Source of the DNA: a virus
Lineage: Duplodnaviria > Heunggongvirae > Uroviricota > Caudoviricetes
Virus record (IMG/VR): IMGVR_UViG_2595698869_000001
Span: 43,214 to 107,213 of that record
Direction: 5' to 3' (one strand)
DNA length: 64,000 nt
Shown here: piece by piece, positions 4,674 through 61,137 of the stretch
Layout of the letters: each line of letters begins with the position of its first letter
Position numbering within the stretch: position 1 is the first letter of the stretch
Program-made: the position numbers and the translations under genes
The notes under the pieces: generated by a model
What the model was told of the DNA's origin: nothing
The model's input: only the letters and a program-made list of their open reading frames with translations
The model's database searches: none

Positions 4674-4749
4674 GTCGGTCTAGCTCATGGGGTAGAGCGG
4701 CGGTCTCCAAAACCGCGCGTGGCAGGTTCGAGTCCTGCGACCGGCGCCA
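4674..4749 (+). tRNA. tRNA-Trp(CCA)
   Basis: Cloverleaf, GCGGT-CTCCAAA-ACCGC anticodon arm, GGTTCGAGTCC T arm, encoded CCA. Confidence 0.92.
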
Positions 4750-4754
4750 TTTCC

Positions 4755-4829
4755 GCGTCCATCGTATATGGGTTATTGCTTCGCGTTGCCAACGCGACGA
4801 ACCGGGTTCGAGTCCCGGTGGACGCTCCA
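4755..4829 (+). tRNA. tRNA-Gly(GCC)
   Basis: Cloverleaf, TCGCG-TTGCCAA-CGCGA, U73, CCA. Confidence 0.92.
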
Positions 4830-4835
4830 ATCCAG

Positions 4836-4909
4836 GCGGATATAGCTCAAAGGGAGAGCTACTGCCTTCCAAGCAGAAGATGCGGGTTCGAGCCCCGCTA
4901 TCCGCTCCA
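4836..4909 (+). tRNA. tRNA-Gly(TCC)
   Basis: Cloverleaf, loop CTTCCAA, GCGGATA/TATCCGC acceptor stem, CCA. Confidence 0.92.
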
Positions 4910-4968
4910 AAATTTTCTTCCACGACAAGCTTGACAGCCGCCGAGATTTGTGAGAGCCTTCAACCATT

Positions 4969-5031
4969 ATGACGCACCTCCTGACCCGTTACGAACGCGA
5001 GGCCACCGGCCTCGATACCACCACCGCCTAA
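4969..5031 (+). CDS. Putative leaderless 20-aa leader peptide (MTHLLTRYEREATGLDTTTA) overlapping alternative hairpins
   Basis: ATG just downstream of TTGACA at 4931. CGAGGCC/GGCCTCG/CGAGGCC-TTTT segments allow two exclusive hairpins. Confidence 0.4.
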   Translation: MTHLLTRYEREATGLDTTTA

Positions 5032-5065
5032 AAGCGGTTCTGGTAACCGAGGCCTTTTGTCATGT

Positions 5066-5143
5066 GGCCCGGTCGTCTAGCGGTTTGCAGGATTCGTGAC
5101 TTTCAATCACGAGAGCGGAGTTCGAGTCTCCGTCGGGCCTCCA
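5066..5143 (+). tRNA. tRNA-Glu(TTC)
   Basis: Cloverleaf, CGTGA-CTTTCAA-TCACG, CCA. Confidence 0.9.
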
Positions 5144-5166
5144 CCCCCAAAGCCTCCTCTGAGCTT

Positions 5167-5241
5167 GGTGCGTTCGTATATCGGTCAATACTCCGGATTG
5201 TCGATCCGGCAAGAGGGGTTCGATTCCCCTACGCACCGCCA
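5167..5241 (+). tRNA. tRNA-Asp(GTC)
   Basis: Cloverleaf, CCGGA-TTGTCGA-TCCGG, G73, CCA. Confidence 0.92.
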
Positions 5242-5252
5242 GGGCTTTCCCA

Positions 5253-5411
5253 ATGCCGCTTCAGTCGGGTTCGAGCGACGCCGTCGTCTCGCACAACATC
5301 GCCAAGCTGATCGACGAGGGCTACTCCAGGGAGCAGGCCGTTGCGATCGCTCTCTCCCAGGCGCGCAAGCCGCGCCGTCCGAAGGTCTCGCGCGGCTCGC
5401 GCCGGCGCTGA
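5253..5411 (+). CDS. Small basic protein (52 aa, [39 protein letters not shown]...)
   Basis: Read from the sequence (below the ORF-track cutoff). Resembles the common phage MPL..S.NI..L..EG...EQAVAIAL small-protein family; strong GC3 bias. Confidence 0.75.
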
Positions 5412-5482
5412 CCTCGCCTCGCTAAAGCACCCCCAGGTTCCCGGCCTCGTCGTGAGGTCGCCTGCGGTCGCGCGAGGCTTCT

Positions 5483-5707
5483 ATGACCTTTCTTGATCTT
5501 CGTTCGCAGTCGAGCACCGCGCTCCTGCGCCATGTGTCTTCCCGATCCCCGATGGCGGAAGCGGCTCGCACCGAGTTGCTGACCCGAGGCCTCGTCCCGC
5601 TCCTCACGCGACACAACGGCTGGCGCCTCGCCCCGAGCGAGCCCTTTCCGCAGCATCTCATCCCGCGCCCCGATCCGCTCGCGAGGTTCACGTGGCGGGC
5701 GGGATGA
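5483..5707 (+). CDS. Hypothetical protein (74 aa)
   Basis: ORF filling the gap between the small gene and the next promoter; no recognisable motif. Confidence 0.5.
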   Translation: MTFLDLRSQSSTALLRHVSSRSPMAEAARTELLTRGLVPLLTRHNGWRLAPSEPFPQHLIPRPDPLARFTWRAG

Positions 5708-6055
5708 AGATTTTTCTCATGACGTGCTTGACATCCGTCTAAAGTTGTGAGAGCCTGTCCAACGTCACGGATCACGACACTCCTCGGAGTGCAAAAGCGC
5801 GATCCTTCGTTATTCCCAGGGCCGTCAGCGGGCGGCCGTTCGAGAGCCATCATGTTCGCCTTGTCGCATAACAGCCTGAGCACGAAAGCCGCCTCCCCGG
5901 CGACGCTTTCGCTTGCGCTGCCGGCGACGGCCACGAAGCCCTCGACCAAGCCGACCACCTCGGCCTCGCACTCGACGGATCACCTCTAGGGTATCTCGTC
6001 TCGGGTGCAGGCCTTGGAGCCGCACCCGCTACCAACATCCTGTTGACCTAGCGCA

Positions 6056-6091
6056 AGGCGGCTCCCAGCAAGGAGACCGCCTTTTCTTTTT
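6056..6091 (+). terminator. Intrinsic terminator-like hairpin
   Basis: AGGCGG-CTCC...GGAG-ACCGCC followed by TTTTCTTTT. Confidence 0.6.
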
Positions 6092-6103
6092 CGCGTTGAT
6101 CAT

Positions 6104-6179
6104 CGGGGTGTAGCTCAGTCGGTAGAGCGCTCGGTTCGGGACCGAGAGGCCGTGGGTTCGAGTCCCGCCACCCAGACCA
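6104..6179 (+). tRNA. tRNA-Pro(CGG)
   Basis: Cloverleaf, CTCGG-TTCGGGA-CCGAG, one acceptor mismatch, CCA. Confidence 0.88.
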
Positions 6180-6186
6180 ACGCCAT

Positions 6187-6261
6187 CGGGATGTAGCTCA
6201 GCGGTAGAGCGCGCGGCTGGGGGCCGCGAGGCCGCAGGTTCGAGACCTGCCACCCCGACCA
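6187..6261 (+). tRNA. tRNA-Pro(GGG)
   Basis: Cloverleaf, CGCGG-CTGGGGG-CCGCG, CCA. Confidence 0.9.
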
Positions 6262-6266
6262 ACAAT

Positions 6267-6339
6267 GCTGCTGCGCCTGGATCGGCGCCGGCCCCTTGGT
6301 ATGGGGAAGTAGAAGGTTCAATTCCTTCCAGCAGCACCA
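6267..6339 (+). tRNA. Atypical tRNA-Thr(GGT)-like, non-canonical D arm
   Basis: GCTGCTG/CAGCAGC acceptor, GAAGG-TTCAATT-CCTTC T arm, CCCC-TTGGTAT-GGGG anticodon arm; D region CGCC-TGGATC-GGCG without the U8-A9 linker. Confidence 0.55.
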
Positions 6340-6344
6340 ACAAC

Positions 6345-6414
6345 GCCGATGCCTCTAGGAGGACACGTCTTTCGTAATGACGTCAGGTGGGTGCGATCCC
6401 CACTTTCGGCTCCA
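6345..6414 (+). tRNA. Atypical tRNA-Thr(CGT)-like, miniature D arm
   Basis: GCCGA/TCGGC acceptor, GTGGG-TGCGATC-CCCAC T arm, loop TTCGTAA, D arm CCTC-TAG-GAGG, CCA. Confidence 0.55.
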
Positions 6415-6449
6415 CCAAGATGATCGAGGAGAGATCAGACGAAACAAAT

Positions 6450-6536
6450 GGATGTGTCACCTCAGTGGCGAGAGGACCGGGCTCTTAATCCGGCAGCGAA
6501 AGCTCATCGTGGGTTCGAGTCCCACCACATCCTCCA
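6450..6536 (+). tRNA. tRNA-Lys(CTT) with long variable arm
   Basis: CCGGG-CTCTTAA-TCCGG; extra arm AGC-GAAA-GCT; CCA. Confidence 0.85.
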
Positions 6537-6541
6537 ATAAT

Positions 6542-6631
6542 GCACGAGTGACCCGAGCGGCGAAGGGCGTCGACTTTTAATCGACTGGGCGTCCAGCCTC
6601 ACCGAGGGTTCGAGTCCCTCCTCGTGCTCCA
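6542..6631 (+). tRNA. tRNA-Lys(TTT) with long variable arm
   Basis: GTCGA-CTTTTAA-TCGAC; ~18-nt variable region; CCA. Confidence 0.85.
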
Positions 6632-6637
6632 AGATGT

Positions 6638-6723
6638 GCGAAAGTGGCGGAACAAGGTAGACGCACCGGTCTCAGGTACCGGCGGCTTCGGTCATGAGGG
6701 TTCGAGTCCCTCCTTTCGTACCA
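6638..6723 (+). tRNA. tRNA-Leu(CAG)
   Basis: Type II cloverleaf, loop CTCAGGT, A73, CCA. Confidence 0.92.
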
Positions 6724-6730
6724 ACGACAT

Positions 6731-6815
6731 GCCGGTCTGGCGGAAATGGCAGACGCAGTGGCTTCAAGTCCCACCGCCTTCGGGCGTCCCGGTTCGATGC
6801 CGGGGACCGGCACCA
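6731..6815 (+). tRNA. tRNA-Leu(CAA)
   Basis: Type II cloverleaf, loop TTCAAGT, CCA. Confidence 0.9.
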
Positions 6816-6821
6816 AAATGA

Positions 6822-6909
6822 TGCGAAGTGGCGGAATTTGGTAGACGCACCGGCATGAGAGGCCGGCGCCCTTCGGGGCGTGAGGGTTCGAGTCCCTTCT
6901 TCGCGACCA
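6822..6909 (+). tRNA. tRNA-Leu(GAG)
   Basis: Type II cloverleaf, CCGGC-ATGAGAG-GCCGG, CCA. Confidence 0.9.
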
Positions 6910-6922
6910 AAGACGAGATTAT

Positions 6923-6994
6923 GCCGGACGGCGCAGGCGCGCGGGGGAGGTTGTGTCCCTCCTTGGCTCCGATCGTTACGGAGGTTCGGTTCCA
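6923..6994 (+). tRNA. Atypical tRNA-His(GTG), mini D arm, U73, no encoded G-1
   Basis: GCCGGAC/GTTCGGT acceptor, GGAGG-TTGTGTC-CCTCC anticodon arm, CTCCG-ATCGTTA-CGGAG T arm, then T-CCA. Confidence 0.6.
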
Positions 6995-6999
6995 GTTAC

Positions 7000-7070
7000 G
7001 GGGTATGCGCAGGGCGCAGGCATCCTTTGCAAGGAAGTCGGGGTGGGTTCGAGTCCCACATACTCCACCA
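7000..7070 (+). tRNA. Atypical tRNA-Ala(TGC), mini D arm
   Basis: GGGGTAT/ATACTCC acceptor with G3-U70, loop TTTGCAA, canonical T arm, D arm GCGC-AGG-GCGC, ACCA. Confidence 0.7.
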
Positions 7071-7074
7071 ACAC

Positions 7075-7162
7075 GGTAGGTTGGCTGAGAGGCCGAAGGC
7101 GCCCGTTTCGAAAACGGGAGAACCGCAAGGTTCCGTGGGTTCGAATCCCACACCTACCTCCA
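7075..7162 (+). tRNA. tRNA-Ser(CGA)
   Basis: Type II cloverleaf, loop TTCGAAA; core nearly identical to the next tRNA. Confidence 0.9.
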
Positions 7163-7166
7163 ACAT

Positions 7167-7254
7167 GGATGTATGGCTGAGAGGCCGAAGGCGCCCGCTT
7201 GGAAAGCGGGTGAACCGCAAGGTTCCGTAGGTTCGAATCCTACTGCATCCGCCA
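7167..7254 (+). tRNA. tRNA-Ser(GGA)
   Basis: Type II cloverleaf, loop TTGGAAA, G73, CCA. Confidence 0.92.
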
Positions 7255-7258
7255 ACAT

Positions 7259-7345
7259 GGTAGGTGGTTCCGGCCTGGGGCCGGACCCGGTTGCTAACCG
7301 GCCGGAGCCGCAAGGCTTGGGGTTCGATTCCTCCTCCTACCGCCA
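7259..7345 (+). tRNA. tRNA-Ser(GCT)
   Basis: Type II cloverleaf, CCGG-TTGCTAA-CCGG, G73, CCA. Confidence 0.88.
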
Positions 7346-7385
7346 ACATCTCCCAGGCCTATAGCCTGGGAGGGTTTGGACATAA

Positions 7386-7874
7386 TCAGGCGTGGTTCGG
7401 AAACTCGGCGATCTCAATCCCAGGCGAGGCGCTGACGACCAACCAGTAAGCTCCGGTCCAGCGCAAGACAACCGCAGGCGGATAGGCCGGGGCCAAGGGG
7501 GTGAGCACGGATGCCGGATCGGCTACGATAGAATCGGGCAACGGAACGATCAAGGCTGGACCGGTTTTCGCCGTCGCAGGATCACCATAACCGGAAGCGA
7601 AGACGGGGGTCTGAACGCCAGCGTCAGCCAATATGCCGAGGATAATAGGCATAGCTAAGGGCGCACTCTGCGGAGCATGTGTCCCACGAGAGAATGTGAT
7701 GAAAAGTTCGTCTCCTACTTCCTTCGCGGCAGTAAGGAATCCATATCTTGCGGCATAGTCGGCTGCTCCGAATTCAGGAGAGACTTGGCTTACGAGATGG
7801 ACGCGCTGCTCTCCGTTCGGGTTGACGATTTGAATCGAAGCCTCAATACCTCGGTTCATCGTGATTGCGGTCAT
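7386..7874 (-). CDS. Hypothetical protein (162 aa) inserted antisense in the tRNA array
   Basis: Protein-like ORF, visibly AT-richer third positions than the structural genes. Confidence 0.6.
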   Translation of the reverse strand: MTAITMNRGIEASIQIVNPNGEQRVHLVSQVSPEFGAADYAARYGFLTAAKEVGDELFITFSRGTHAPQSAPLAMPIILGILADAGVQTPVFASGYGDPATAKTGPALIVPLPDSIVADPASVLTPLAPAYPPAVVLRWTGAYWLVVSASPGIEIAEFPNHA

Positions 7875-8252
7875 AAGTATCTCCAGCGGCTGGATGCCGC
7901 AGTGCGATGCCTAAAGTCGAGTTTTCGACGTGTCCAGCCCCTTTGAAGTTGACACCCGCGACGCGGCCTGTCATACGTCACGACAGAGCGAACACCCCCC
8001 GGCCGGGTTTGTTGTCATACCGGGTCGTCACGCCCCGTCGGGGCTCTAGTAGCTCTTCGTGTGGAGTTTTCCGCCTCCCTCCCAGACAAGGAGGCGGACC
8101 CAACCAACATCGCGATCTCCCGTGATCGTCGGCGACGGGCGCCGTCAGAGACCTTTGCCTGCGCGGCTCCGCTGCGGCCCTGGTCTCGTCCCGACCAAAT
8201 TTTTTCGTCGTGGTGCTTGACACTGCGAAACTGTTCTGCTAGGGTTCACGTC

Positions 8253-8351
8253 ATGAGCAAGACCTATCGTCAATTTGTGCGCCAGATTCAGGTCGTCCGG
8301 AATATCCGGGCGGGCCGCTCGCGCATGGCTGACGAAGGGTTCAGGGACTAG
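8253..8351 (+). CDS. Putative leaderless 32-aa basic peptide (MSKTYRQFVRQIQVVRNIRAGRSRMADEGFRD)
   Basis: Preceded by TTGACA(8217)-N15-GCTAGGGT and followed by a terminator at ~8383-8420. Confidence 0.5.
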   Translation: MSKTYRQFVRQIQVVRNIRAGRSRMADEGFRD

Positions 8352-8453
8352 GTCCCACACCACGTTCAACCAGCTTTCGAGAGGCCCGCCTGGAAACCCC
8401 AGGCGGGCCTTTTTTCTTTTCCACTTTCGATCACGGAGATCGCCAACAGACAC

Positions 8454-8538
8454 GGATGCTTAAAGCTGGAGGGCTCCAGCCGGGGACTGTAAATCCCCTC
8501 TCTTCGGAGGAGTGGTTCGATCCCACAAGCATCCACCA
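8454..8538 (+). tRNA. tRNA-Tyr(GTA)
   Basis: GGGGA-CTGTAAA-TCCCC, long variable arm, ACCA. Confidence 0.88.
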
Positions 8539-8543
8539 ACCAC

Positions 8544-8619
8544 GGACTCGTAGCTCAGCAGGTAGAGCGCCGGCTTGAAACCCCGGAGGTCGGAGGTTCG
8601 ACTCCTCCCGTTTCCACCA
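8544..8619 (+). tRNA. tRNA-Phe(GAA)
   Basis: Cloverleaf, loop TTGAAAC, ACCA. Confidence 0.88.
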
Positions 8620-8624
8620 ACAAC

Positions 8625-8700
8625 GCCCGATGAGCCAGATGGGAAGGCGCCGCCGTGACATGGCGGGATTGAGAAGGTTCGATTCCTTCATCAGGCACCA
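8625..8700 (+). tRNA. tRNA-Val(GAC)
   Basis: CCGCC-GTGACAT-GGCGG, T arm, ACCA. Confidence 0.85.
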
Positions 8701-8702
8701 AT

Positions 8703-8778
8703 GCAAGTGTAGCTCAGTTGGTAGAGCAGCGGACCGATAATCCGCCCGTCCCTGGTTCGAGTCCAGGCATTTGCACCA
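8703..8778 (+). tRNA. tRNA-Ile(GAT)
   Basis: GCGGA-CCGATAA-TCCGC, ACCA. Confidence 0.88.
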
Positions 8779-8785
8779 GTTCTGA

Positions 8786-8860
8786 TGTGGCATAGCTCAG
8801 GGGTAGAGCGCGCGCTTGATAAGCGTGAGGTCGGGGGTTCGAAGCCCTCTGCCACTACCA
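8786..8860 (+). tRNA. tRNA-Ile(GAT), second copy
   Basis: Loop TTGATAA, T arm, ACCA. Confidence 0.88.
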
Positions 8861-8893
8861 GTTTCCAGGCCGGCGGAGATGCGCCGAACCTGA

Positions 8894-8969
8894 TGGCGTT
8901 TAGCATAGTGGGAGTGCAGGGGTGTCACATACCTCGATCGAACTGGTTCGATTCCAGTAACGCCAACCA
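8894..8969 (+). tRNA. tRNA-Val(CAC)
   Basis: GGGGT-GTCACAT-ACCTC, TGGCGTT/AACGCCA acceptor, ACCA. Confidence 0.82.
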
Positions 8970-8974
8970 AATGT

Positions 8975-9048
8975 TGAGGGTTCGTCTAACGGTAGGACGG
9001 CTGGGTCTGGTCCAGCTAATCTAGGTTCGAGTCCTAGCCCCTCATCCA
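8975..9048 (+). tRNA. tRNA-Gln(CTG)
   Basis: Loop TCTGGTC region, T arm, CCA. Confidence 0.88.
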
Positions 9049-9055
9049 AGTTTGT

Positions 9056-9129
9056 TCTCGGGTGGTCTAATGGTAAGACATCTGGTTTTGGTCCAGAGGA
9101 TTGGGGTTCGATTCCTTGGCCGAGAACCA
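9056..9129 (+). tRNA. tRNA-Gln(TTG)
   Basis: TCTGG-TTTTGGT-CCAGA, T arm, CCA. Confidence 0.88.
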
Positions 9130-9144
9130 ACTACTTGAGTTTAT

Positions 9145-9219
9145 TCCAGTCAATGCACAAGGTGTGCAGCGGCACTGTTAATGCCTGTGAGCCCGGTTCG
9201 ATTCCGGGGTCTGGAGCCA
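9145..9219 (+). tRNA. tRNA-Asn(GTT)
   Basis: GGCA-CTGTTAA-TGCC, G73, CCA. Confidence 0.85.
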
Positions 9220-9245
9220 ACACGCCGGCCGAGGCCGGCACATGC

Positions 9246-9328
9246 GCCCTGGTAACCGAGGGGGATTACGAATCCCTTAGTCGTAGCAGGAGTTGAAAAG
9301 GGTGGTTCGAATCCACTCCAGGGTGCCA
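9246..9328 (+). tRNA. D-armless tRNA-Arg(ACG)-like element
   Basis: GCCCTGG/CCAGGGT acceptor, GGGA-TTACGAA-TCCC, GTGG-TTCGAAT-CCAC, G-CCA; only ~8 nt in place of the D arm and a ~25-nt variable region. Confidence 0.45.
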
Positions 9329-9335
9329 AATTCAC

Positions 9336-9418
9336 AGCGCGCAGGCCGAGCAGGATCATCGTCAGGCGTCGCCCTCCGAAGGCGAAGAGGCCCGGTTCGA
9401 GTCCGGGGCGCGCTGCCA
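9336..9418 (+). tRNA. tRNA-Arg(CCG), expanded D region
   Basis: AGCGCGC/GCGCGCT acceptor, TCGCC-CTCCGAA-GGCGA, G-CCA. Confidence 0.8.
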
Positions 9419-9421
9419 TCC

Positions 9422-9499
9422 GCGCGGGTAGCTCAATGGACCCAGAGCAGCCGTCTTCTACACGGTGGGTTGGGGGTTCGAATCCCTCCCCGTGCGCCA
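9422..9499 (+). tRNA. tRNA-Arg(TCT)
   Basis: Cloverleaf, loop CTTCTAC, G-CCA. Confidence 0.9.
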
Positions 9500-40940: not shown

Positions 40941-43748
40941 TTACCCCTCACATGCCAAGCAGTCGGACGAGGCCGTCGGGTTGAGGGCCAGCATCGCGGC
41001 CTCCTCGGCGGAGCCCTCGGTCACGGGCTCCTCGGCGATCTCGATCTTCTTGCGCTCGACCTTGGCGTTGGTGTTCTCGGCCCGCTTGGGGGTCGACGAG
41101 CGCAGGTAGTAGAAGGACTTGACGCCGGCGCCCTCGCCCCAGCCCAGGAAGTGGAGTTCCGAGAGGTACTCGGCGTCCGCGTCGTGGGGCACGAAGACGT
41201 TCAGGGACTGGCCCTGGCAGATCGACTTGGAGCGGTCGACCGCGAGGGTCACGACCCAGCGCTGGTCCATTTCGCGGGCGGTCCGGTAGACCTTCAGGAG
41301 ATGCAGGCGCTCGGCTTCCGGCATGGTCACGCCGTGCTCGGCCAGGAACTCGGGCGTGAAGTGCTGGATCGAGCCCTCGGCCGCGACGATCGACTTCCAG
41401 ACCGCCTCGGTGTCCAGGCCCAGTTCGCCCAGGCGCTTCTTCAGCCAGCGGTTCTTGACGGCGAACGAGCCCGACAGGGTCTTGTGCAGGAAGGTGTTGG
41501 CCGGGATCGGCTCGATCGACGGCGAGGTGCCCCCGCAGAGGATCGAGGACGAGGCGTTGGGCGCCACGGCCAGCTTGTGGGCGAACCGCTCGCCCGTGCC
41601 TTCCATGTCCGGCGCCTCGCCGCGCTCCTTGCCCAGCAGCAGGGAAGCCGCGTCGGCCTGCTTGCGCATGTGGACGAACAGTTCCAGGTTCAGCCGGCGG
41701 GCGGCGTGACTCTCGAACGGGATGTCCAGCATCTGGAGCAGCGAGTGGAAGCCGAGCAGGCCCAGGCCCACCGACCGTTCGCGCACGGCGCTGTAGGCGG
41801 CGCGGTGCATCTCGTCCGGCGCGTTGTCGATGAACACCTGGAGGCAGTTGTCCAGCATGCGCAGCAGGTCTTCGATGAAGGTCGGGTGATCCCGCCACTC
41901 CGGCCACTTCTCGGCGTTGACGCTGGAGAGGCAGCAGACGGCGGTCCGCATCTTGCCGAAGATGTCGCGGCCCGAGCCCAGCATGATCTCCGAGCAGTTG
42001 CCCGTCAGATAGCCGTTGAAGACCAGACGGTTGCGCAGGGGCTCGGTCGCGCAGAAGACGTCGGCCTTGTGCGCGAGCGGGTGGACGTCGGCGACCGTCG
42101 CCGCCAGGATCGAGGCCACCCCGATCGCGGCATCGCGCGGCTCGATCGCGTGGGCCAGGACGATGCCGCGATCCGACAGGTAGGCCACGTCCCACTCGGC
42201 GAGCGAGAAGGCGCTGACCGTGTCGGTCAGGCGGATGCGCGGGTGAAGGCCGGACTCGATGGCCATGAGGCGCATCTGGCGGATCAGGTCGACGTCGGTC
42301 GAGCCGACGGTCAGCCAGCGCGCGCCGTCGATCTCGACCCACTCGCCGGCCGCGTCCAGCGCGCCGGCCAGCCACGTCAGGCGGCGTTCGACAGTCCAGG
42401 CGAATGGCACCACGCCGGGATTGATCACCTGCGGGTCAAAGCGCAGGGTCGTGCCGTGCTCGTCGCCTTCCAGGTTGGTCGACAGCGTCGACAGGCGCTT
42501 GAGCACCTCGCCGGGCAGGGTCTCGGGCACGAAGGCCGACAGCCGGTTCTTGTCGTCGAAGCCAGCGAAGGTCGTCCAGCCGGCGGCATAGGCCTGCTCG
42601 ATCGGCGGCGTCGCGTCGGCCAGTCCCTCGATCACCGGCGCCTGGGCCTTGGCCAGCACGGTCCCGAGCTTCAGTTCGCCGGCCCGAACCTCCACGCCGT
42701 CCTTGGTGTAGAACTTGTGGTAGGGGGTGCAGTCGAGATAGTCGCCGTCCTCGAACCAGACGCGCACCAGCGAGGCCTTCTCGTCGGTGGGGTTGGTCTG
42801 CTGGATCAGGACGCGGCTGAATTCCTCGCCGTTCCAGACGTCGTGGTATTCGCCCTTCAGGGCCTCGATCGGCAGGTGGCCGTTGCGGGTCAGGATTTCG
42901 GTCTCGCCGGTCACGCAGAGGTTCGACTGGCGGACCTTGAGGCCGAGCTTCTTCTGCGCCTCGGGGAAGTGGCGGTTGGAGGTGTCGATGAAGTGGATGT
43001 AGGGCTCGCCCGTCTGCATCCGCGTCTCGATCAGCAGGCGCCACAGTTCGCGCGCCCGCTCGACGCGGATCACCTCGCCGGTCTTGGGCGAACGCAGGGC
43101 GAACTCGGTGTCGTCGCGCACCGCGATCATGAACTCGTCGGTGACGTTGACGGCGTTGTGCAGATTGGTGATCTTGCGGTTCTGGTCGCCGCCGGTCGGC
43201 TTGCGGGCCGTGATGAACTCGCGGATTTCCGGGTGGCTGATGTCCAGATAGACGGCGTTGGAGCCCCGGCGCGTGCCGCCTTGGCTGACGGCGAGAATCA
43301 GGCGATCGTCCACCGCCATGAACGGGATCACGCCGGTCGACTGCGAACCCTTCGAGGTCTTCTCGCCCAGGCCGCGCAGGGCGCCGTAGTAGGAGCCGAT
43401 GCCGCCGCCCATCGACGAGAGCCAGATAACCTCGTCATAGTGCTCGGAGATCGACTCGCGGCTGTCCTCGATCGCGGTGAGGAAGCAGGAGATCGGCAGG
43501 CCGCGCGCGGACCCGCCGTTCGACAGCAGGGGCGTGGCGAACATGAACCAGAGGTTCGAGACATAGTCGTAGAGCCGCTGGCCGTGCTCGGCGTCATCCG
43601 CGAAGGCCGCACTCGCGCGCGCGAAGGCCTCCTGGGGCGAGCTTTCCCCAGGCAGCAGATAGCGTTCACGGAGGGTCTGAAGGGTGAAGTCGTCGAGCAG
43701 GGCGTCGCGGGTGAGATCGATCTTGATTTCGGAGGGTGCGACAGCCAT
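40941..43748 (-). CDS. nrdA: Class I ribonucleotide reductase alpha subunit, intein-containing
   Basis: ATPLLSNGG, PISCFL, SNL-[intein]-CSEI, APNASSS, CQGQSLN, YYLRS, C-terminal CLACEG; start placed at ATG 43748. Confidence 0.93.
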   Translation of the reverse strand: MAVAPSEIKIDLTRDALLDDFTLQTLRERYLLPGESSPQEAFARASAAFADDAEHGQRLYDYVSNLWFMFATPLLSNGGSARGLPISCFLTAIEDSRESISEHYDEVIWLSSMGGGIGSYYGALRGLGEKTSKGSQSTGVIPFMAVDDRLILAVSQGGTRRGSNAVYLDISHPEIREFITARKPTGGDQNRKITNLHNAVNVTDEFMIAVRDDTEFALRSPKTGEVIRVERARELWRLLIETRMQTGEPYIHFIDTSNRHFPEAQKKLGLKVRQSNLCVTGETEILTRNGHLPIEALKGEYHDVWNGEEFSRVLIQQTNPTDEKASLVRVWFEDGDYLDCTPYHKFYTKDGVEVRAGELKLGTVLAKAQAPVIEGLADATPPIEQAYAAGWTTFAGFDDKNRLSAFVPETLPGEVLKRLSTLSTNLEGDEHGTTLRFDPQVINPGVVPFAWTVERRLTWLAGALDAAGEWVEIDGARWLTVGSTDVDLIRQMRLMAIESGLHPRIRLTDTVSAFSLAEWDVAYLSDRGIVLAHAIEPRDAAIGVASILAATVADVHPLAHKADVFCATEPLRNRLVFNGYLTGNCSEIMLGSGRDIFGKMRTAVCCLSSVNAEKWPEWRDHPTFIEDLLRMLDNCLQVFIDNAPDEMHRAAYSAVRERSVGLGLLGFHSLLQMLDIPFESHAARRLNLELFVHMRKQADAASLLLGKERGEAPDMEGTGERFAHKLAVAPNASSSILCGGTSPSIEPIPANTFLHKTLSGSFAVKNRWLKKRLGELGLDTEAVWKSIVAAEGSIQHFTPEFLAEHGVTMPEAERLHLLKVYRTAREMDQRWVVTLAVDRSKSICQGQSLNVFVPHDADAEYLSELHFLGWGEGAGVKSFYYLRSSTPKRAENTNAKVERKKIEIAEEPVTEGSAEEAAMLALNPTASSDCLACEG
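41997..42917 (-). mobile_element. Intein (307 aa) with degenerate LAGLIDADG region
   Basis: Begins CVTGETEILT, contains CTPYHKF (block B), ends VFCATEP..N.L..NG.LTGN before Cys; splits the NL/CSE active-site loop. Confidence 0.9.
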
Positions 43749-59323: not shown

Positions 59324-59412
59324 TGGAGCTTCGGGAGGGACTCGAACCCTCATAGGTGTTCCCACCAGCAGAGATTTGCAATCCCGCGCCTAACCTCTCA
59401 GTCCACCGAAGC
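59324..59412 (-). tRNA. tRNA-Cys(GCA) with long variable arm
   Basis: GCTTCGG/CCGAAGC acceptor, loop TTGCAAA, GGTG-GGAA-CACC extra arm, U73, CCA. Confidence 0.85.
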
Positions 59413-59639: not shown

Positions 59640-60510
59640 GATGGGCTGAGACTACACCCATCAGCAATCCCGCTTCGAGGATTATTCCCCAGGTGCGACC
59701 CCAGGTATTCCCTCGACGTCCACCAGACCCCTTGCGGTAGTCCAGTCCGAGATCATCGCCGCCGTTCTTGCGCACCCCGAAGGGATTGCGGGTCTGGCGT
59801 TTGACCCATCATGGCGAACTACTCGACAGTTCCTTCCCCGCTGGGCTTGCGACCCACTCACCGGCGCTAACCGGCTGACGAAGCTCTTCCTATCGACACC
59901 TCGCGGGCTTGCGACCCTTGAGATGACTCCGTTACCCGAAGGCCGGAGCATTTGGCGACTTACGTCCGCCACTGGACCAGTCTTTGCGTTTTTCATCGAA
60001 GCGGGGATTGAACCCGCGACCGACAGCTTAAGAGGCTGTTGCACTACCACTGTGCTATTCGCAAACCCACCAAGACGTGCTGGTCCAGTTGTTCCCAGAG
60101 CTTTTGACCCCGGAAATGCAACACGCCTCATATCTTTCGCCTTGCGGGCTACTCGACTGCTCTTCAGGACTCCGTCTCCCCCAACCTTTCGGCCAGGATG
60201 CCCAGCACCCCTCGAACTGAAGCAAAGCTCTTCACCGCGAAGTGTCGAACCCTGCAACCCAAACGGTTATCCGTACTCCCTAGACACGCTTGCACGGGAT
60301 AGTCCGCTTGCGACGGACTGGCGGTTAAAGCCTCGGAGTTACCCCGGCCCCGCCTTGTCTCCCACGGTCTTCAGGTCTATCCCCTTTTGCAAGAGGCGGC
60401 CAGCTTCCCAGCCCGGACCCGTCGGCTTCCTCTGTCCTCTTGCGAGGTCGGGCGGCCTATGGGAGACCGTCCCTGTCACCCCGTCGCCGGGGCTTTCGTC
60501 AGAAGCGACG
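59640..60510 (-). ncRNA. ~870-nt GOLLD-like large structured RNA
   Basis: TTGACG(60544-60539)-N15-GCTAGAAC promoter, at least seven GCAA/GAAA-capped hairpins on the minus strand, long-range helices, embedded tRNA body, terminator at 59597-59635. Confidence 0.65.
59994..60064 (-). tRNA. tRNA-Lys(CTT)-like body embedded in the large RNA, no CCA
   Basis: D arm GCAC-AGTGGTA-GTGC, ACAGC-CTCTTAA-GCTGT, GCGGG-TTCAATC-CCCGC; acceptor only 4 bp, continuing into a longer stem. Confidence 0.7.
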
Positions 60511-60631
60511 ATGACGTTCTAGCGACAGCCCACGTCGTCGTCAACGACTTTTTCCGTCTCGATGTCGAATTTTTTCGACAGTCGTGGATGACGACAGTGC
60601 TTGACATTCTCGTAAGCCCATGCTAGGTGTC

Positions 60632-61003
60632 GGAAATCGTTGTAATTCGGACAACGGAACTGGCGGCAAGACAGGGGTGCGAATCCCCTCGCCTCCACCA
60701 TCGACGCCCGGCGCTGGGAGTACGCGACTCCTGGGCAGGGAGTGTTACCCTGGCGGGCTGCGGCCCGAGCCAAAGGTAGCCGGGCGTCGTTGATGGGGGC
60801 GACTAGCTTTCGATTGGCGCTCGGGACTGAAAGACGCAACGGTGGGTGACCTCCACATCGGCTTGCCGGTGATCGGGTCAGGCAACAGTAAATGTCGCCG
60901 ACAATGACAACGACGTCGTGGCTTTCGCCTCGGCTCGTGAAGCCATCGCCGCCTAATAAGCGGTAGAGGAGCCCGCCGGGAGCTTGGCAACAGAATCCCG
61001 GCA
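60632..61003 (+). ncRNA. ssrA: Two-piece (circularly permuted) tmRNA
   Basis: Acceptor piece ends GGGGTGCGAATCCCCTCGCCTCCACCA (60700). Coding piece starts GGGGGCG (60795), giving a 7-bp stem with G3-U70. Tag frame 60897-60956 reads ADNDNDVVAFASAREAIAA-stop. Promoter TTGACA(60601)-N15-GCTAGG. Confidence 0.9.
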
Positions 61004-61137
61004 ACCCCCTTTCGCAGGCGGGAACACCAACAGGCGATCTGTCGGGCGACCGATTTCCGATCCGTGTTCCCGTCTTCGAAAGGTGGTCAGGCCTACCCTC
61101 TTGGTGTGCTATCCAAGGGTCTGGCCACTTTACAGAA

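Follow-up and report, generated by a model that had tools for sequence, protein, structure and literature searches.

Compact tRNA genes with a miniature D arm, predicted to serve threonine, histidine and alanine, in a phiCbK-type Caulobacter phage

For the tRNA array of a phiCbK-type Caulobacter phage, the question is whether four tRNA-like elements with a very small D arm are working tRNAs. In the founding genome paper of these phages (Gill et al. 2012, PMC3556154), tRNAs for 13-16 amino acids were reported per phage, Thr and Tyr tRNAs were absent from all of them, and a His tRNA was reported in Colossus only. The four elements, hereafter mini-D genes (two Thr, one His and one Ala), are located on the plus strand of the window, i.e., the whole 64,000-nt stretch analyzed here (positions 43,214 to 107,213 of IMG/VR record IMGVR_UViG_2595698869_000001). 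They are Thr-GGU (6267..6339, 73 nt), Thr-CGU (6345..6414, 70 nt), His-GUG (6923..6994, 72 nt) and Ala-UGC (7000..7070, 71 nt). The reading considered likely, with a probability of about 0.8, is that these genes are working elongator tRNAs with a compact core, expression and charging being inferred.

The mini-D genes belong to a tRNA array (6104..7341, plus strand; compiled from ARAGORN, Rfam and manual parses) in the order Pro, Pro, Thr, Thr, Lys, Lys, three Leu, His, Ala and three Ser. They lie among canonical tRNAs, with the same 4-5-nt spacers between them and their immediate neighbors, as would be expected if the genes were co-transcribed and processed together. A simple scan of 5900-7500 returned neither a sigma-70-like promoter nor an array-bounding terminator, and the sole terminator-like match in that scan lies within the Lys-UUU gene. 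Operon, spacing and encoded CCA are shared with the ordinary tRNAs of the phiCbK-like clusters (Gill et al. 2012, PMC3556154), and the anticodons of both kinds fit the commonest phage codons.

By manual parse, the acceptor stem is 7 bp long in all four genes and is followed by a discriminator base and an encoded CCA; that of Thr-CGU contains a single U•U and a single G•U. The D arm is in each case a 4-bp hairpin with a loop of 3-6 nt, beginning 0-1 nt beyond the acceptor stem: for Thr-GGU, Thr-CGU, His and Ala, respectively, the linker is 0, 0, 1 and 0 nt (no more than 1 nt in the orthologues either) and the D loop 6, 3, 4 and 3 nt. U8 and A14 are missing from all four, and none meets the criterion for a canonical D arm (U8, N9, A14, A21 and a 7-11-nt loop). 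The anticodon stem comprises 5-6 bp, with 6/6 pairs in His in the window, five plus a U•U in Thr-CGU, four to six in Thr-GGU depending on the phage, and 5/6 in Ala. Assuming a 6-pair anticodon stem, the variable region measures 3 nt in His and the two Thr genes, against 4 nt in Ala. The T arm has a 5-bp stem and a 7-nt loop throughout; the T-loop consensus U54-U55-C56-R57-A58 is found in Thr-GGU and Ala, with G55 in Thr-CGU and A54/U58 in His.

The preliminary description, made from the sequence alone, had placed four elements at 6267, 6345, 6923 and 7000, with good acceptor, anticodon and T arms plus CCA, and with a tiny D hairpin lacking U8, A14 and GG. All four starts held, as did the arms, apart from mismatches in some stems, and the loss of U8 and A14. 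The claimed loss of GG is true only of the gene at 6345 (D loop UAG); the other three genes have GG in the D loop (UGGAUC, AGGC and AGG).

The Thr-GGU gene has the acceptor stem GCUGCUG/CAGCAGC with A73-CCA, the D hairpin CGCC-UGGAUC-GGCG directly abutting it, an anticodon stem that in the window consists of four C-G pairs and a G•A, and a canonical T arm (GAAGG-UUCAAUU-CCUUC). In Thr-CGU, the acceptor stem GCCGAUG/UUUCGGC with U73-CCA is accompanied by the D hairpin CCUC-UAG-GAGG, an anticodon stem of five pairs followed by a U•U that closes the 7-nt loop UUCGUAA, and the T loop UGCGAUC with G at position 55. The His gene has the acceptor stem GCCGGAC/GUUCGGU with G1•U72 and U73-CCA, the D hairpin GCGC-AGGC-GCGC after its 1-nt linker, a 6-bp anticodon stem with the loop UUGUGUC and U37, and the T loop AUCGUUA, in which positions 54 and 58 are exchanged to A and U; position -1 is U (base 6922 is T), hence no G-1 is encoded. 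In Ala, the acceptor stem GGGGUAU/AUACUCC with G3•U70 and A73-CCA is combined with the D hairpin GCGC-AGG-GCGC, an anticodon stem with a conserved A•N mismatch and a canonical T arm. Two other parses were rejected: Thr(UGU) at 6923, obtained by moving the loop one base, leaves a mismatch in the window and no pairing in the Rogue-group orthologues, and a D-stem register with a 2-nt linker suits Rogue, BL10, Colossus and PW and does not suit the window.

A strict hand-written descriptor, comprising all architectural parts plus NCCA, matched the window five times, namely at the four mini-D genes and at an Asn gene at 9145, with a chance expectation of 0.005 matches per window (mean of 200 dinucleotide shuffles, both strands). 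A hand-written descriptor was used because a Thr-GGU covariance model does not detect the architecture; as a detector the model was rejected, with mini-D Ala and His at 16-32 bits, no better than ordinary tRNAs. With the same model, Thr-GGU reached 69-98 bits and Thr-CGU 43-57 bits, scores suggesting that the two are paralogues. The fifth match, tRNA-Asn(GUU) (9145..9219, plus strand), is a milder related case of a compact D arm, with the 2-nt linker AA, a 5-bp D stem UGCAC/GUGCA (by eye) and a 5-nt loop with GG; ARAGORN reads it in the wrong register, as Ile(aat).

The omission of the mini-D genes by standard tools is shown directly. ARAGORN called the genes at 6267 and 7000 and missed those at 6345 and 6923. 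With the Rfam tRNA model (RF00005), Ala at 7000 scored 23.2 bits, under the 29-bit gathering threshold, and Thr-GGU, Thr-CGU and His had no match at E<=10, so that against four manual folds two of four were recovered by ARAGORN and none by Rfam above threshold. In most GenBank records the genes are unannotated, and Thr-CGU of Colossus is labelled 'tRNA-Pseudo'.

Across the whole 221.8-kb genome, no further Thr, His or Ala tRNA was found with ARAGORN or the hand-written descriptor; by these two methods, the four mini-D genes are the only tRNAs for these amino acids in the phage, and they fill gaps reported by Gill et al. 2012 (PMC3556154). Their anticodons also match phage codon usage. In 27 long ORFs, ACC and ACG make up 64.5% and 32.8% of Thr codons, so the two Thr anticodons (GGU and CGU) match about 97% of them, and CAC makes up 83% of His codons. 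Further odd tRNAs were observed in this phage: a non-canonical Tyr-GUA gene with a long D stem around 8452-8540 and a non-canonical Cys gene on the minus strand. Genes with a long variable arm are seen for Lys, Cys, Met and Arg.

Conservation is likewise shown. Orthologues occupy the same slots in 11 of the 11 genomes compared from related phages of Caulobacter and Brevundimonas, a set spanning Shapirovirus, Poindextervirus, Colossusvirus and Brevundimonas phages, where the array order is the same, the Thr pair follows Pro-Pro and His-Ala follows the three Leu genes. The compact form is not universal: Colossus and PW carry a canonical-length tRNA-Ala next to the mini-D tRNA-Ala, and the His slot in Colossus, PW, Papperlapapp and Kikimora is a 75-76-nt gene, which indicates that the compact form is dispensable in some lineages.

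Evidence that the fold itself is maintained comes from covariation among the orthologues. Both sides were altered in 13 of the 22 pairs in Thr-GGU, 12 in Thr-CGU, 12 in His and 6 in Ala, with 93.7%, 92.6%, 99.1% and 94.7% of cells paired, respectively; the compensatory changes involve each of the four helices and extend across phage genera. These counts rest on 5-11 related sequences per family; His has five distinct sequences, and Ala has six, including one contig that is not closely related. Bajun (weak anticodon stem) and Colossus (D-hairpin insertion) were omitted from the Ala pair counts. The observed percentage paired, the number of both-side-changed cells and the covariation score were reached by 0 shuffles; for two coarser measures, 7-14 of the 500 shuffles did reach the observed value in three of the families. 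Shuffle controls are inflated by the relatedness of the sequences; the slid-partner control is free of that problem, and in it structures moved by 1-3 columns paired in just 36-56% of cells. RNAalifold returned the same four helices, including the tiny D hairpin, from the Thr-GGU, Thr-CGU and His alignments. A single MAFFT alignment of all four families was discarded, since the His genes were misaligned in it.

Single comparisons show the same pattern. Between CcrSwift and the window, the His gene differs at six positions, all within three compensating pairs: 6-67, one T-stem pair and the T-loop positions 54/58 (U..A to A..U). In Thr-CGU, three lineages (Shapirovirus, BL57 and Kikimora) combine the D loop UAG with a UGCGAUC T loop, and D loops ending in GG accompany the T loop UUCRAxx in all other lineages, a correlation that points to a D-loop/T-loop contact. 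The stems of the relatives show compensatory changes and not random decay.

The identity elements are invariant, whereas the remainder of each stem varies. In Ala, G1-C72, G2-C71, G3•U70, G4-C69 and A73 are invariant, so that the tRNAAla identity set (G3•U70 with A73 and G2-C71) is present, and in His G1•U72 is invariant in the five distinct sequences. Both Thr families keep G1-C72 and C2-G71. The tRNAThr identity set consists of acceptor-stem pairs and anticodon nucleotides (PMC9976931). In E. coli the specific positions are G1-C72, C2-G71, G35 and U36, and this set is met and invariant in both Thr families. Anticodon loops are constant or almost so across orthologues.

Host identity rules are literature values. 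The phage His gene resembles the Caulobacter-type tRNAHis in having no encoded G-1, in G1•U72 and in the GUG anticodon (PMC3064791). The strong determinants of the C. crescentus HisRS are the anticodon and U72 (Yuan et al. 2011, PMC3064791), and in vitro the U72C change in tRNAHis costs 91-fold, A73C just 3-fold (PMC3064791). The host tRNAHis differs in having A73, G37 and a D loop of 9 nt that includes U20a (PMC3064791), in contrast to U73, U37 and a 4-nt D loop in the phage gene. Among the phages, the discriminator is U73 in the window, phiCbK and Swift, A73 in Rogue, BL10 and BL57, and G73 in Bajun; the Rogue-group orthologues thus do share the host A73.

Most remaining claims of the preliminary description were also borne out. 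Thr, His and Ala are indeed missing without the mini-D genes, Ala keeps G3-U70, His has no encoded G-1 in agreement with the Caulobacter-type identity, and scanners do miss such genes or label them pseudo. Coverage of the full 20 amino acids depends on accepting the non-canonical Tyr-GUA, Asn-GUU (9145..9219) and minus-strand Cys genes, and the proposal that U73 is the host-matching His feature failed, since the host has A73 and the matching feature is G1•U72. The central claim, that these are functional reduced tRNAs, is supported by every available computational test, expression and charging remaining inferred.

The functional reading is based on the covariation, the RNAalifold fold, the invariant identity elements, the operon position and the codon match. 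Under it, the mini-D genes would be transcribed within the tRNA array, and RNase P and 3' nucleases of the host would excise the tRNAs, whose 'top half' (acceptor and T arms) is canonical and whose CCA is encoded. Charging would be performed by the host ThrRS, HisRS and AlaRS, which read the acceptor stem and/or anticodon and not the D arm, and EF-Tu would deliver the charged tRNAs to the ribosome for decoding. The small D loop is inferred to retain contact with the T loop, so that the molecule would fold into an L as tRNAPyl or mitochondrial tRNASer(UCN) does, and the mini-D Thr, His and Ala tRNAs would fill out the 20-amino-acid set. The C. crescentus HisRS is sensitive to D-loop size on an E. 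coli tRNAHis scaffold (PMC3064791), so the charging of the mini-D tRNAHis is not assured. Several departures from consensus may lower efficiency, namely U37 and U73 (against the host A73) in His, the U•U that closes the Thr-CGU anticodon stem, only four Watson-Crick pairs in the Thr-GGU anticodon stem of the window phage, and the conserved A•N in the Ala anticodon stem.

Compact cores of this kind are known elsewhere. The tRNAPyl of Methanosarcina barkeri and Desulfitobacterium hafniense likewise has a compact core, with a linker of 0-1 nt from acceptor to D stem, a D loop of very small size and a 3-nt variable region (PMC7609411). Its anticodon stem is extended to six pairs (PMC7609411), a number that among the phage genes of the window is complete in His alone. 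Bacterial EF-Tu and ribosomes work with tRNAPyl, indicating that the compact shape is compatible with bacterial translation. Unlike the phage tRNAs, tRNAPyl lacks G18/G19 and T-Psi-C, acts as an amber suppressor and is charged by a synthetase dedicated to it, whereas most of the phage tRNAs retain GG and UUCRA, and they have sense anticodons and standard Thr, His and Ala identity marks. The mammalian mitochondrial tRNASer(UCN) (type I mt-tRNA) shows the same four compact-core features and keeps G18, G19 and T-Psi-C, hence the D-loop/T-loop contact and the L-shape (PMC7609411); three of the four phage genes keep GG as it does. It differs in being organellar, in a specialised translation system and for Ser alone, whereas the phage set presumably works in an ordinary bacterial system, covers Thr, His and Ala, and has no linker nucleotide in three of four genes. 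The likeness to both is treated as convergent architecture; common descent with either is not expected, and no homology is implied.

The architecture was also found in other phage contigs, with a mini-D Ala in L009, His and Met in L030, Thr-CGU and Ala-GGC in L048, and Thr-CGU in L051. These contigs and the phage genome have no more than a single weakly similar ORF (33-35% identity) in common, the comparison being limited to the DNA around their tRNAs; as far as that DNA shows, they are at most distant relatives. The exact mini-D Ala motif was absent among 185,579 bacterial species genomes. IMG/VR pattern matches to the His loop signature were mostly non-tRNA, and L030 alone is a clear mini-D His.

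If the genes are working tRNAs, the reason for the small D arm has two candidate explanations. The leading guess, which refines the working-tRNA explanation and does not replace it, is counter-defence: the odd core may let functional tRNAs escape host enzymes that recognize, cut or modify standard tRNAs (anticodon nucleases, toxin ribonucleases and defence-system tRNases), so that translation of phage mRNA would go on during an attack on host tRNAs. This is possible and no more. In its favor, the mini-D form has been held over deep phage divergence with no drift back, the same architecture occurs in the at most distantly related contigs, and the exact Ala motif is in none of the bacterial species genomes searched. 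An intact RtcB RNA ligase (415 bits) is also encoded by the phage, which we interpret as a tRNA-repair counter-defence tool. A precedent is phage T5, whose tRNA-Lys, -Thr and -Asn variants defeat the PARIS nuclease AriB; like the mini-D tRNAs they are phage-encoded and differ from host tRNAs, and they are thought to sustain translation under attack (PMC12409363). The T5 variants have a normal cloverleaf with sequence differences. The mini-D genes, unlike them, differ in body architecture, and a matching host nuclease is not known. Against counter-defence, no Caulobacter tRNA-targeting defence against Thr, His or Ala mini-D tRNAs is known to us. Phage tRNA escape is known to occur through anticodon-loop changes and is not known to involve the D arm, and the mini-D anticodon loops are conserved and ordinary except for His U37. 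In addition, some relatives on the same host carry canonical-length His or Ala genes.

The alternative is tolerated drift, in which ThrRS, HisRS and AlaRS, together with EF-Tu and RNase P, depend chiefly on the acceptor/T half and the anticodon, so that D-region deletions were near-neutral and became fixed without special benefit. It is supported by the three synthetases all being subclass IIa with identity in the acceptor stem and/or anticodon (PMC9976931, PMC3064791), by the D-hairpin loops of orthologues, which differ in length (3 to 7 nt) and sequence, and by the Colossus mini-D Ala, which has a 2-nt insertion in its D hairpin beside the canonical Ala gene. Drift is likewise no more than possible. 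Against it, the D stems covary instead of decaying, D-loop and T-loop changes are correlated, and the form is found again in at most distantly related phages. The short linker, small loop, longer anticodon stem and short variable region also recur together, which resembles co-adaptation more than random loss.

A non-decoding role, as decaying pseudogenes or as uncharged tRNA-shaped processing signals or decoys, is very unlikely: it has in its favor the rejection or omission of the genes by standard detectors, the 'tRNA-Pseudo' label in one GenBank record and the mismatches in several stems of the window phage, but 12-13 of 22 compensatory pairs and 93-99% pairing (Thr-GGU, Thr-CGU and His) are unexpected for pseudogenes, and processing signals would have no need for invariant anticodon loops, encoded CCA, dominant-codon anticodons or the invariant G3•U70, G1•U72 and G1-C72/C2-G71.

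Building on the working-tRNA reading, a bolder proposal can be put forward only tentatively. The mini-D tRNAs may form an unrecognized, phage-restricted structural class in tRNA-rich phages of different lineages, covering Thr, Ala, His, Met and perhaps Arg. Selection might maintain them because the altered core hides them from host defences that target tRNAs, or from factors that sense tRNAs, and yet remains acceptable to the ribosome, EF-Tu and the class II synthetases of the host. Together with the other odd tRNAs they might constitute a full, partly host-orthogonal decoding set for 20 amino acids.

These results correct the published picture of phiCbK-like phages, which had been described as having no Thr or Tyr tRNAs and, for the most part, no His or Ala tRNAs. 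Instead, the phages appear to encode a complete tRNA set, about one quarter of it in non-standard shapes missed by routine tools, and phage tRNA counts are probably too low wherever detection uses canonical models. If the working-tRNA reading is true, a core of the size of tRNAPyl or mt-tRNASer(UCN) serves ordinary sense codons in ordinary bacterial translation; such a use was not found in a 2020 review of non-canonical tRNAs, in which phages are nowhere mentioned. The mini-D tRNAs are natural scaffolds of possible interest for orthogonal tRNA engineering. C. crescentus with phiCbK offers a tractable system for the role of the D arm and for the host factors that require it, and also suits the question of whether phages reshape tRNA bodies against tRNA-targeting immunity.

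The four genes with a compact D arm are located on the + strand of the window, within a dense tRNA array called by ARAGORN (4674-9499, +), as Thr-GGU (6267-6339, 73 nt), Thr-CGU (6345-6414, 70 nt), His-GUG (6923-6994, 72 nt) and Ala-UGC (7000-7070, 71 nt), all lengths including CCA. Direct reading of 6100-7300 showed that they are flanked by spacers of 4-5 nt, the same as for their canonical neighbours in the array. The virus record of the phage genome spans 221,828 bp and has terminal repeats. The tRNA region of the window showed a 99% match to Caulobacter phage CcrSwift and matches of 97-99% to the other members of the phiCbK-like group (subfamily Dolichocephalovirinae).

The genes were searched for with a hand-written compact-tRNA descriptor. 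It allowed one mismatch in the 7-bp acceptor stem and one in the 5-bp anticodon stem, and none in the 4-bp D stem or the 5-bp T stem. The D loop could measure 3-6 nt, the linkers before and after the D arm 0-2 nt and 0-3 nt, respectively, and the variable region 2-6 nt, while the anticodon loop (containing U33) and the T loop were fixed at 7 nt. With NCCA required, five genes were found in the window, starting at 6267 (GGU), 6345 (CGU), 6923 (GUG), 7000 (UGC) and 9145 (GUU), the last of which (Asn) is a milder compact case. The whole-genome scan gave no matches beyond these five, and 200 dinucleotide-preserving shuffles of the window, scanned on both strands, gave a mean of 0.005 matches.

On the window, ARAGORN called the genes at 6267 (Thr) and 7000 (Ala) and missed those at 6345 and 6923, while a permissive run of the Rfam tRNA model gave 23.2 bits for 7000, under the cut-off of 29, and no match at E<=10 for the other three. 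Among the public records of relatives, those of CcrBL10 and Bajun alone annotate Thr-GGU and the mini-D His, and that of Colossus alone annotates Thr-CGU (as 'tRNA-Pseudo/tRNA-OTHER'); for Ala, annotations exist in Swift, Magneto, BL10, PW and part of the Brevundimonas phages. Thr and Tyr tRNAs were said to be absent from all phiCbK-like phages compared (Gill et al. 2012, PMC3556154).

Other unusual RNA genes were observed in the window. A tRNA-Tyr(GUA)-like gene (8452-8540, +; acceptor GGAUGCU/AGCAUCC, A73-CCA, anticodon loop CUGUAAA), uncalled by ARAGORN and by the Rfam scan, has an extra arm and, in place of the D arm, a 6-bp hairpin with a 4-nt loop (GCUGGA-GGGC-UCCAGC). Long variable arms, normally confined to Leu, Ser and Tyr in bacteria, were seen in tRNA-Lys(CUU), Lys(UUU), Cys(GCA) and one Met of 85-90 nt (6450-6536 and 6542-6631, +; 59324-59412, -; 61583-67, +); the annotation of Mesorhizobium phage Cp1R7A-A1 likewise includes a Lys gene of 88 nt. 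Two genes read by eye and not called by ARAGORN were an Arg(ACG)-like gene (9245-9325, +) with a long variable region and a weak tRNA-Sec-like Rfam match (22.7 bits), and an Arg(CCG)-like gene (~9337-9420, +; acceptor AGCGCGC/GCGCGCU, G73-CCA) whose D loop is very large. A GOLLD RNA match (59643-60129, -; 171 bits, cut-off 150) embeds a tRNA-Lys(CUU)-like body at 59997-60061 and is followed by a permuted tmRNA (60608-61047, +); the 2012 genome paper reported no non-tRNA RNA elements (PMC3556154).

The D hairpins of the compact genes are CGCC-UGGAUC-GGCG in Thr-GGU, CCUC-UAG-GAGG in Thr-CGU, GCGC-AGGC-GCGC in His and GCGC-AGG-GCGC in Ala, preceded by a linker of 1 nt in His and 0 nt in the others and followed by one of 2 nt in all. 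The variable region is 4 nt in Ala and 3 nt in the others, and the T loop is canonical in Thr-GGU and Ala, UGCGAUC in Thr-CGU and AUCGUUA in His. The anticodon stem has six positions in Thr-GGU (four C-G pairs and G•A in the window phage), five pairs and a U•U adjoining the loop in Thr-CGU, six pairs in His, and six positions including a fixed A•N mismatch in Ala. Counting a 5-bp anticodon stem, the connector from acceptor to anticodon stem is 14-17 nt; it is 19-20 nt in canonical and 16-20 nt in quasi-canonical mitochondrial tRNAs (PMC4394434). The preliminary description had stated that U8, A14 and the usual GG are missing; this held for U8 and A14 and failed for GG, which is kept in three of the four D loops.

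Two features of the anticodon stems were also observed. In Thr-GGU, 27-43 is G•A in the window, phiCbK, PW and Bajun, leaving just four Watson-Crick pairs, and the stem has five or six pairs in BL10, Colossus, Papperlapapp and Kikimora; 4-bp anticodon stems have been tied to relaxed decoding (2026 paper, PMC13092985). In Ala, 28-42 is mismatched in all six distinct sequences, the 5' base always being A and its partner A, C or G, never U.

The matching region was compared in Caulobacter phages (Swift, phiCbK, Rogue, BL10, BL57, Colossus and PW) and Brevundimonas phages (Papperlapapp, Domovoi, Kikimora and Bajun). The relatives share the gene order Pro-Pro-(Pro)-Thr-Thr ... Lys-Leu x3-His-Ala-Ser, and both compact Thr genes were present in 11/11 genomes examined; the published DNA identity of phiCbK and Colossus is only 19% (PMC3556154). 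Compact Ala was found in all genomes examined but Kikimora, with a canonical Ala beside it in Colossus and PW. Compact His was found in the Shapirovirus and Poindextervirus groups and Bajun; in Colossus, PW, Papperlapapp and Kikimora its slot is occupied by a His gene of 75-76 nt. In Colossus (L004:2407-2481) and PW (L005:2412-2486), this tRNA-His of canonical length has a U1•U72 mismatch and A73, so that U72 is kept and G1 is not.

Covariation across related phages, proposed in the preliminary description as a check, was examined, and compensatory changes were found in all four families. Pairs changed on both sides numbered 13/22 in Thr-GGU, 12/22 in Thr-CGU, 12/22 in His and 6/22 in Ala, with 93.7%, 92.6%, 99.1% and 94.7% of cells paired, respectively; these counts rest on few independent lineages per family. 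None of 500 shuffles equalled the observed covariation score, percentage paired or both-side-changed cells. Of two coarser counts, that of pairs with a both-side change was equalled in 10/500 shuffles for Ala, and that of further pair types in 14/500 and 7/500 for the two Thr families. When the 3' partner was slid by 1-3 columns, pairing was 36-56% and 0-4 pairs were changed on both sides. Within the D hairpin, 3/4 pairs covaried in Thr-GGU, 2/4 in Thr-CGU and 1/4 in His, with no variation among the aligned Ala sequences. From the Thr-GGU, Thr-CGU and His alignments alone, RNAalifold returned the same four helices, with the tiny D hairpin among them, offering G7-C22 as an alternative fifth D pair in Thr-GGU.

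Between the window and Swift, the His gene shows six differences, all within three compensating pairs: 6-67 (A-U/C-G), one T-stem pair (C-G/A-U) and T-loop 54/58 (A..U/U..A). Positions 54 and 58 form a reverse-Hoogsteen pair in canonical tRNAs. In Thr-CGU, the D loop UAG always occurred with T loop UGCGAUC (Shapirovirus group, BL57, Kikimora), and D loops ending in GG always with UUCRAxx (Rogue/BL10, Colossus/PW, Papperlapapp/Domovoi, Bajun, and IMG/VR contigs L048 and L051). This is interpreted, on the basis of few lineages, as a change from G18•U55 to A18•G55 with the D-loop/T-loop contact kept.

Pattern scans of IMG/VR found the same compact architecture on four further contigs: L009 (40.7 kb), with a compact Ala gene keeping G3•U70 and with compensated stems; L030 (199 kb), with a compact His gene carrying G1•U72 and adjoining a canonical His; L048 (39.9 kb), with compact Thr-CGU and Ala-GGC; and L051 (210 kb), with compact Thr-CGU. 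L030 (UViG_3300017722_002988) also encodes a mini-D tRNA-Met(CAU) (L030:6708-6777, +) whose T loop, AUCGUUA (A54/U58), is that of the window His. Among ORFs within 6-13 kb around the tRNAs, L009 and L051 gave no protein-level match to the phage genome and L030 and L048 one each, at 33-35% identity; therefore, as far as these regions show, the contigs are not close relatives. A single metagenome contig carried the exact mini-D Ala motif, and none of the 185,579 bacterial species genomes scanned did.

Anticodon loops were invariant or nearly so in all four families, and the positions read by synthetases stayed fixed while the stems varied: G1-C72, G2-C71, G3•U70, G4-C69 and A73 were constant in Ala, G1•U72 was present in every His sequence, and G1-C72, C2-G71 and the anticodon were constant in both Thr families; Thr identity is reported to lie in acceptor-stem pairs and anticodon, the discriminator base having little weight (PMC9976931). 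In C. crescentus, tRNAHis carries no G-1, pairs G1 with U72 and ends its acceptor stem with A73 as discriminator, and HisRS loses 91- to 1000-fold on anticodon changes, 91-fold at U72 and just 3-fold with A73C (Yuan et al., PMC3064791). Position 73 is U in the window, A in the Rogue group and G in Bajun; the preliminary claim that U73 matches Caulobacter was thus wrong in detail. By these published host rules, in which HisRS depends strongly on the anticodon and U72 and weakly on 73, phage His fits the host at the strong determinants and not at position 73. D-loop size mattered to HisRS in a transplanted scaffold (PMC3064791), which calls for caution over the inferred charging of the phage His gene.

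In both M. barkeri tRNAPyl and mammalian mt-tRNASer(UCN), no more than 1 nt precedes the D stem, the D loop is small, the anticodon stem is lengthened and the variable region measures 3 nt; mt-tRNASer(UCN) additionally keeps G18, G19 and T-Psi-C (PMC7609411). The phage genes lack the D-arm features of canonical tRNAs and fall below the Rfam threshold. They have the feature set listed in that 2020 review, with the lengthened anticodon stem fully paired in the window only in His and a variable region of 4 nt in Ala, and are therefore classed with the compact-core kind; the words 'phage' and 'bacteriophage' are absent from the review. The four genes are likely (about 0.8) tRNAs working like this kind, as inferred from sequence without expression or charging evidence; common descent is not claimed.

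As for why the body is compact, it may provide escape from tRNA-targeting host factors. This is a fair but conjectural hypothesis, given two observations. Elsewhere in the same genome, beyond the window, lies an intact gene for an RtcB RNA ligase (G000:C1:137206-138336, -; 415 bits, no stops), which is possibly relevant to tRNA repair and counter-defence, and phage T5 defeats the tRNase of PARIS by encoding variants of tRNA-Lys, -Thr and -Asn (PMC12409363). The alternative possibility is drift, tolerated if the synthetases ignore the D arm.

For functional compact-core tRNAs, the reading preferred here, decoding was inferred from codon use in 27 long high-GC3 window ORFs (14,598 codons). Ala codons are 61% GCC and 33% GCG, and the UGC anticodon would cover GCG and GCA, not the dominant GCC. 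His codons are 83% CAC, and GUG would cover all His codons. Thr makes up 7.2% of codons, and since ACC (64.5%) and ACG (32.8%) dominate, the two Thr anticodons would directly cover ~97% of Thr codons.
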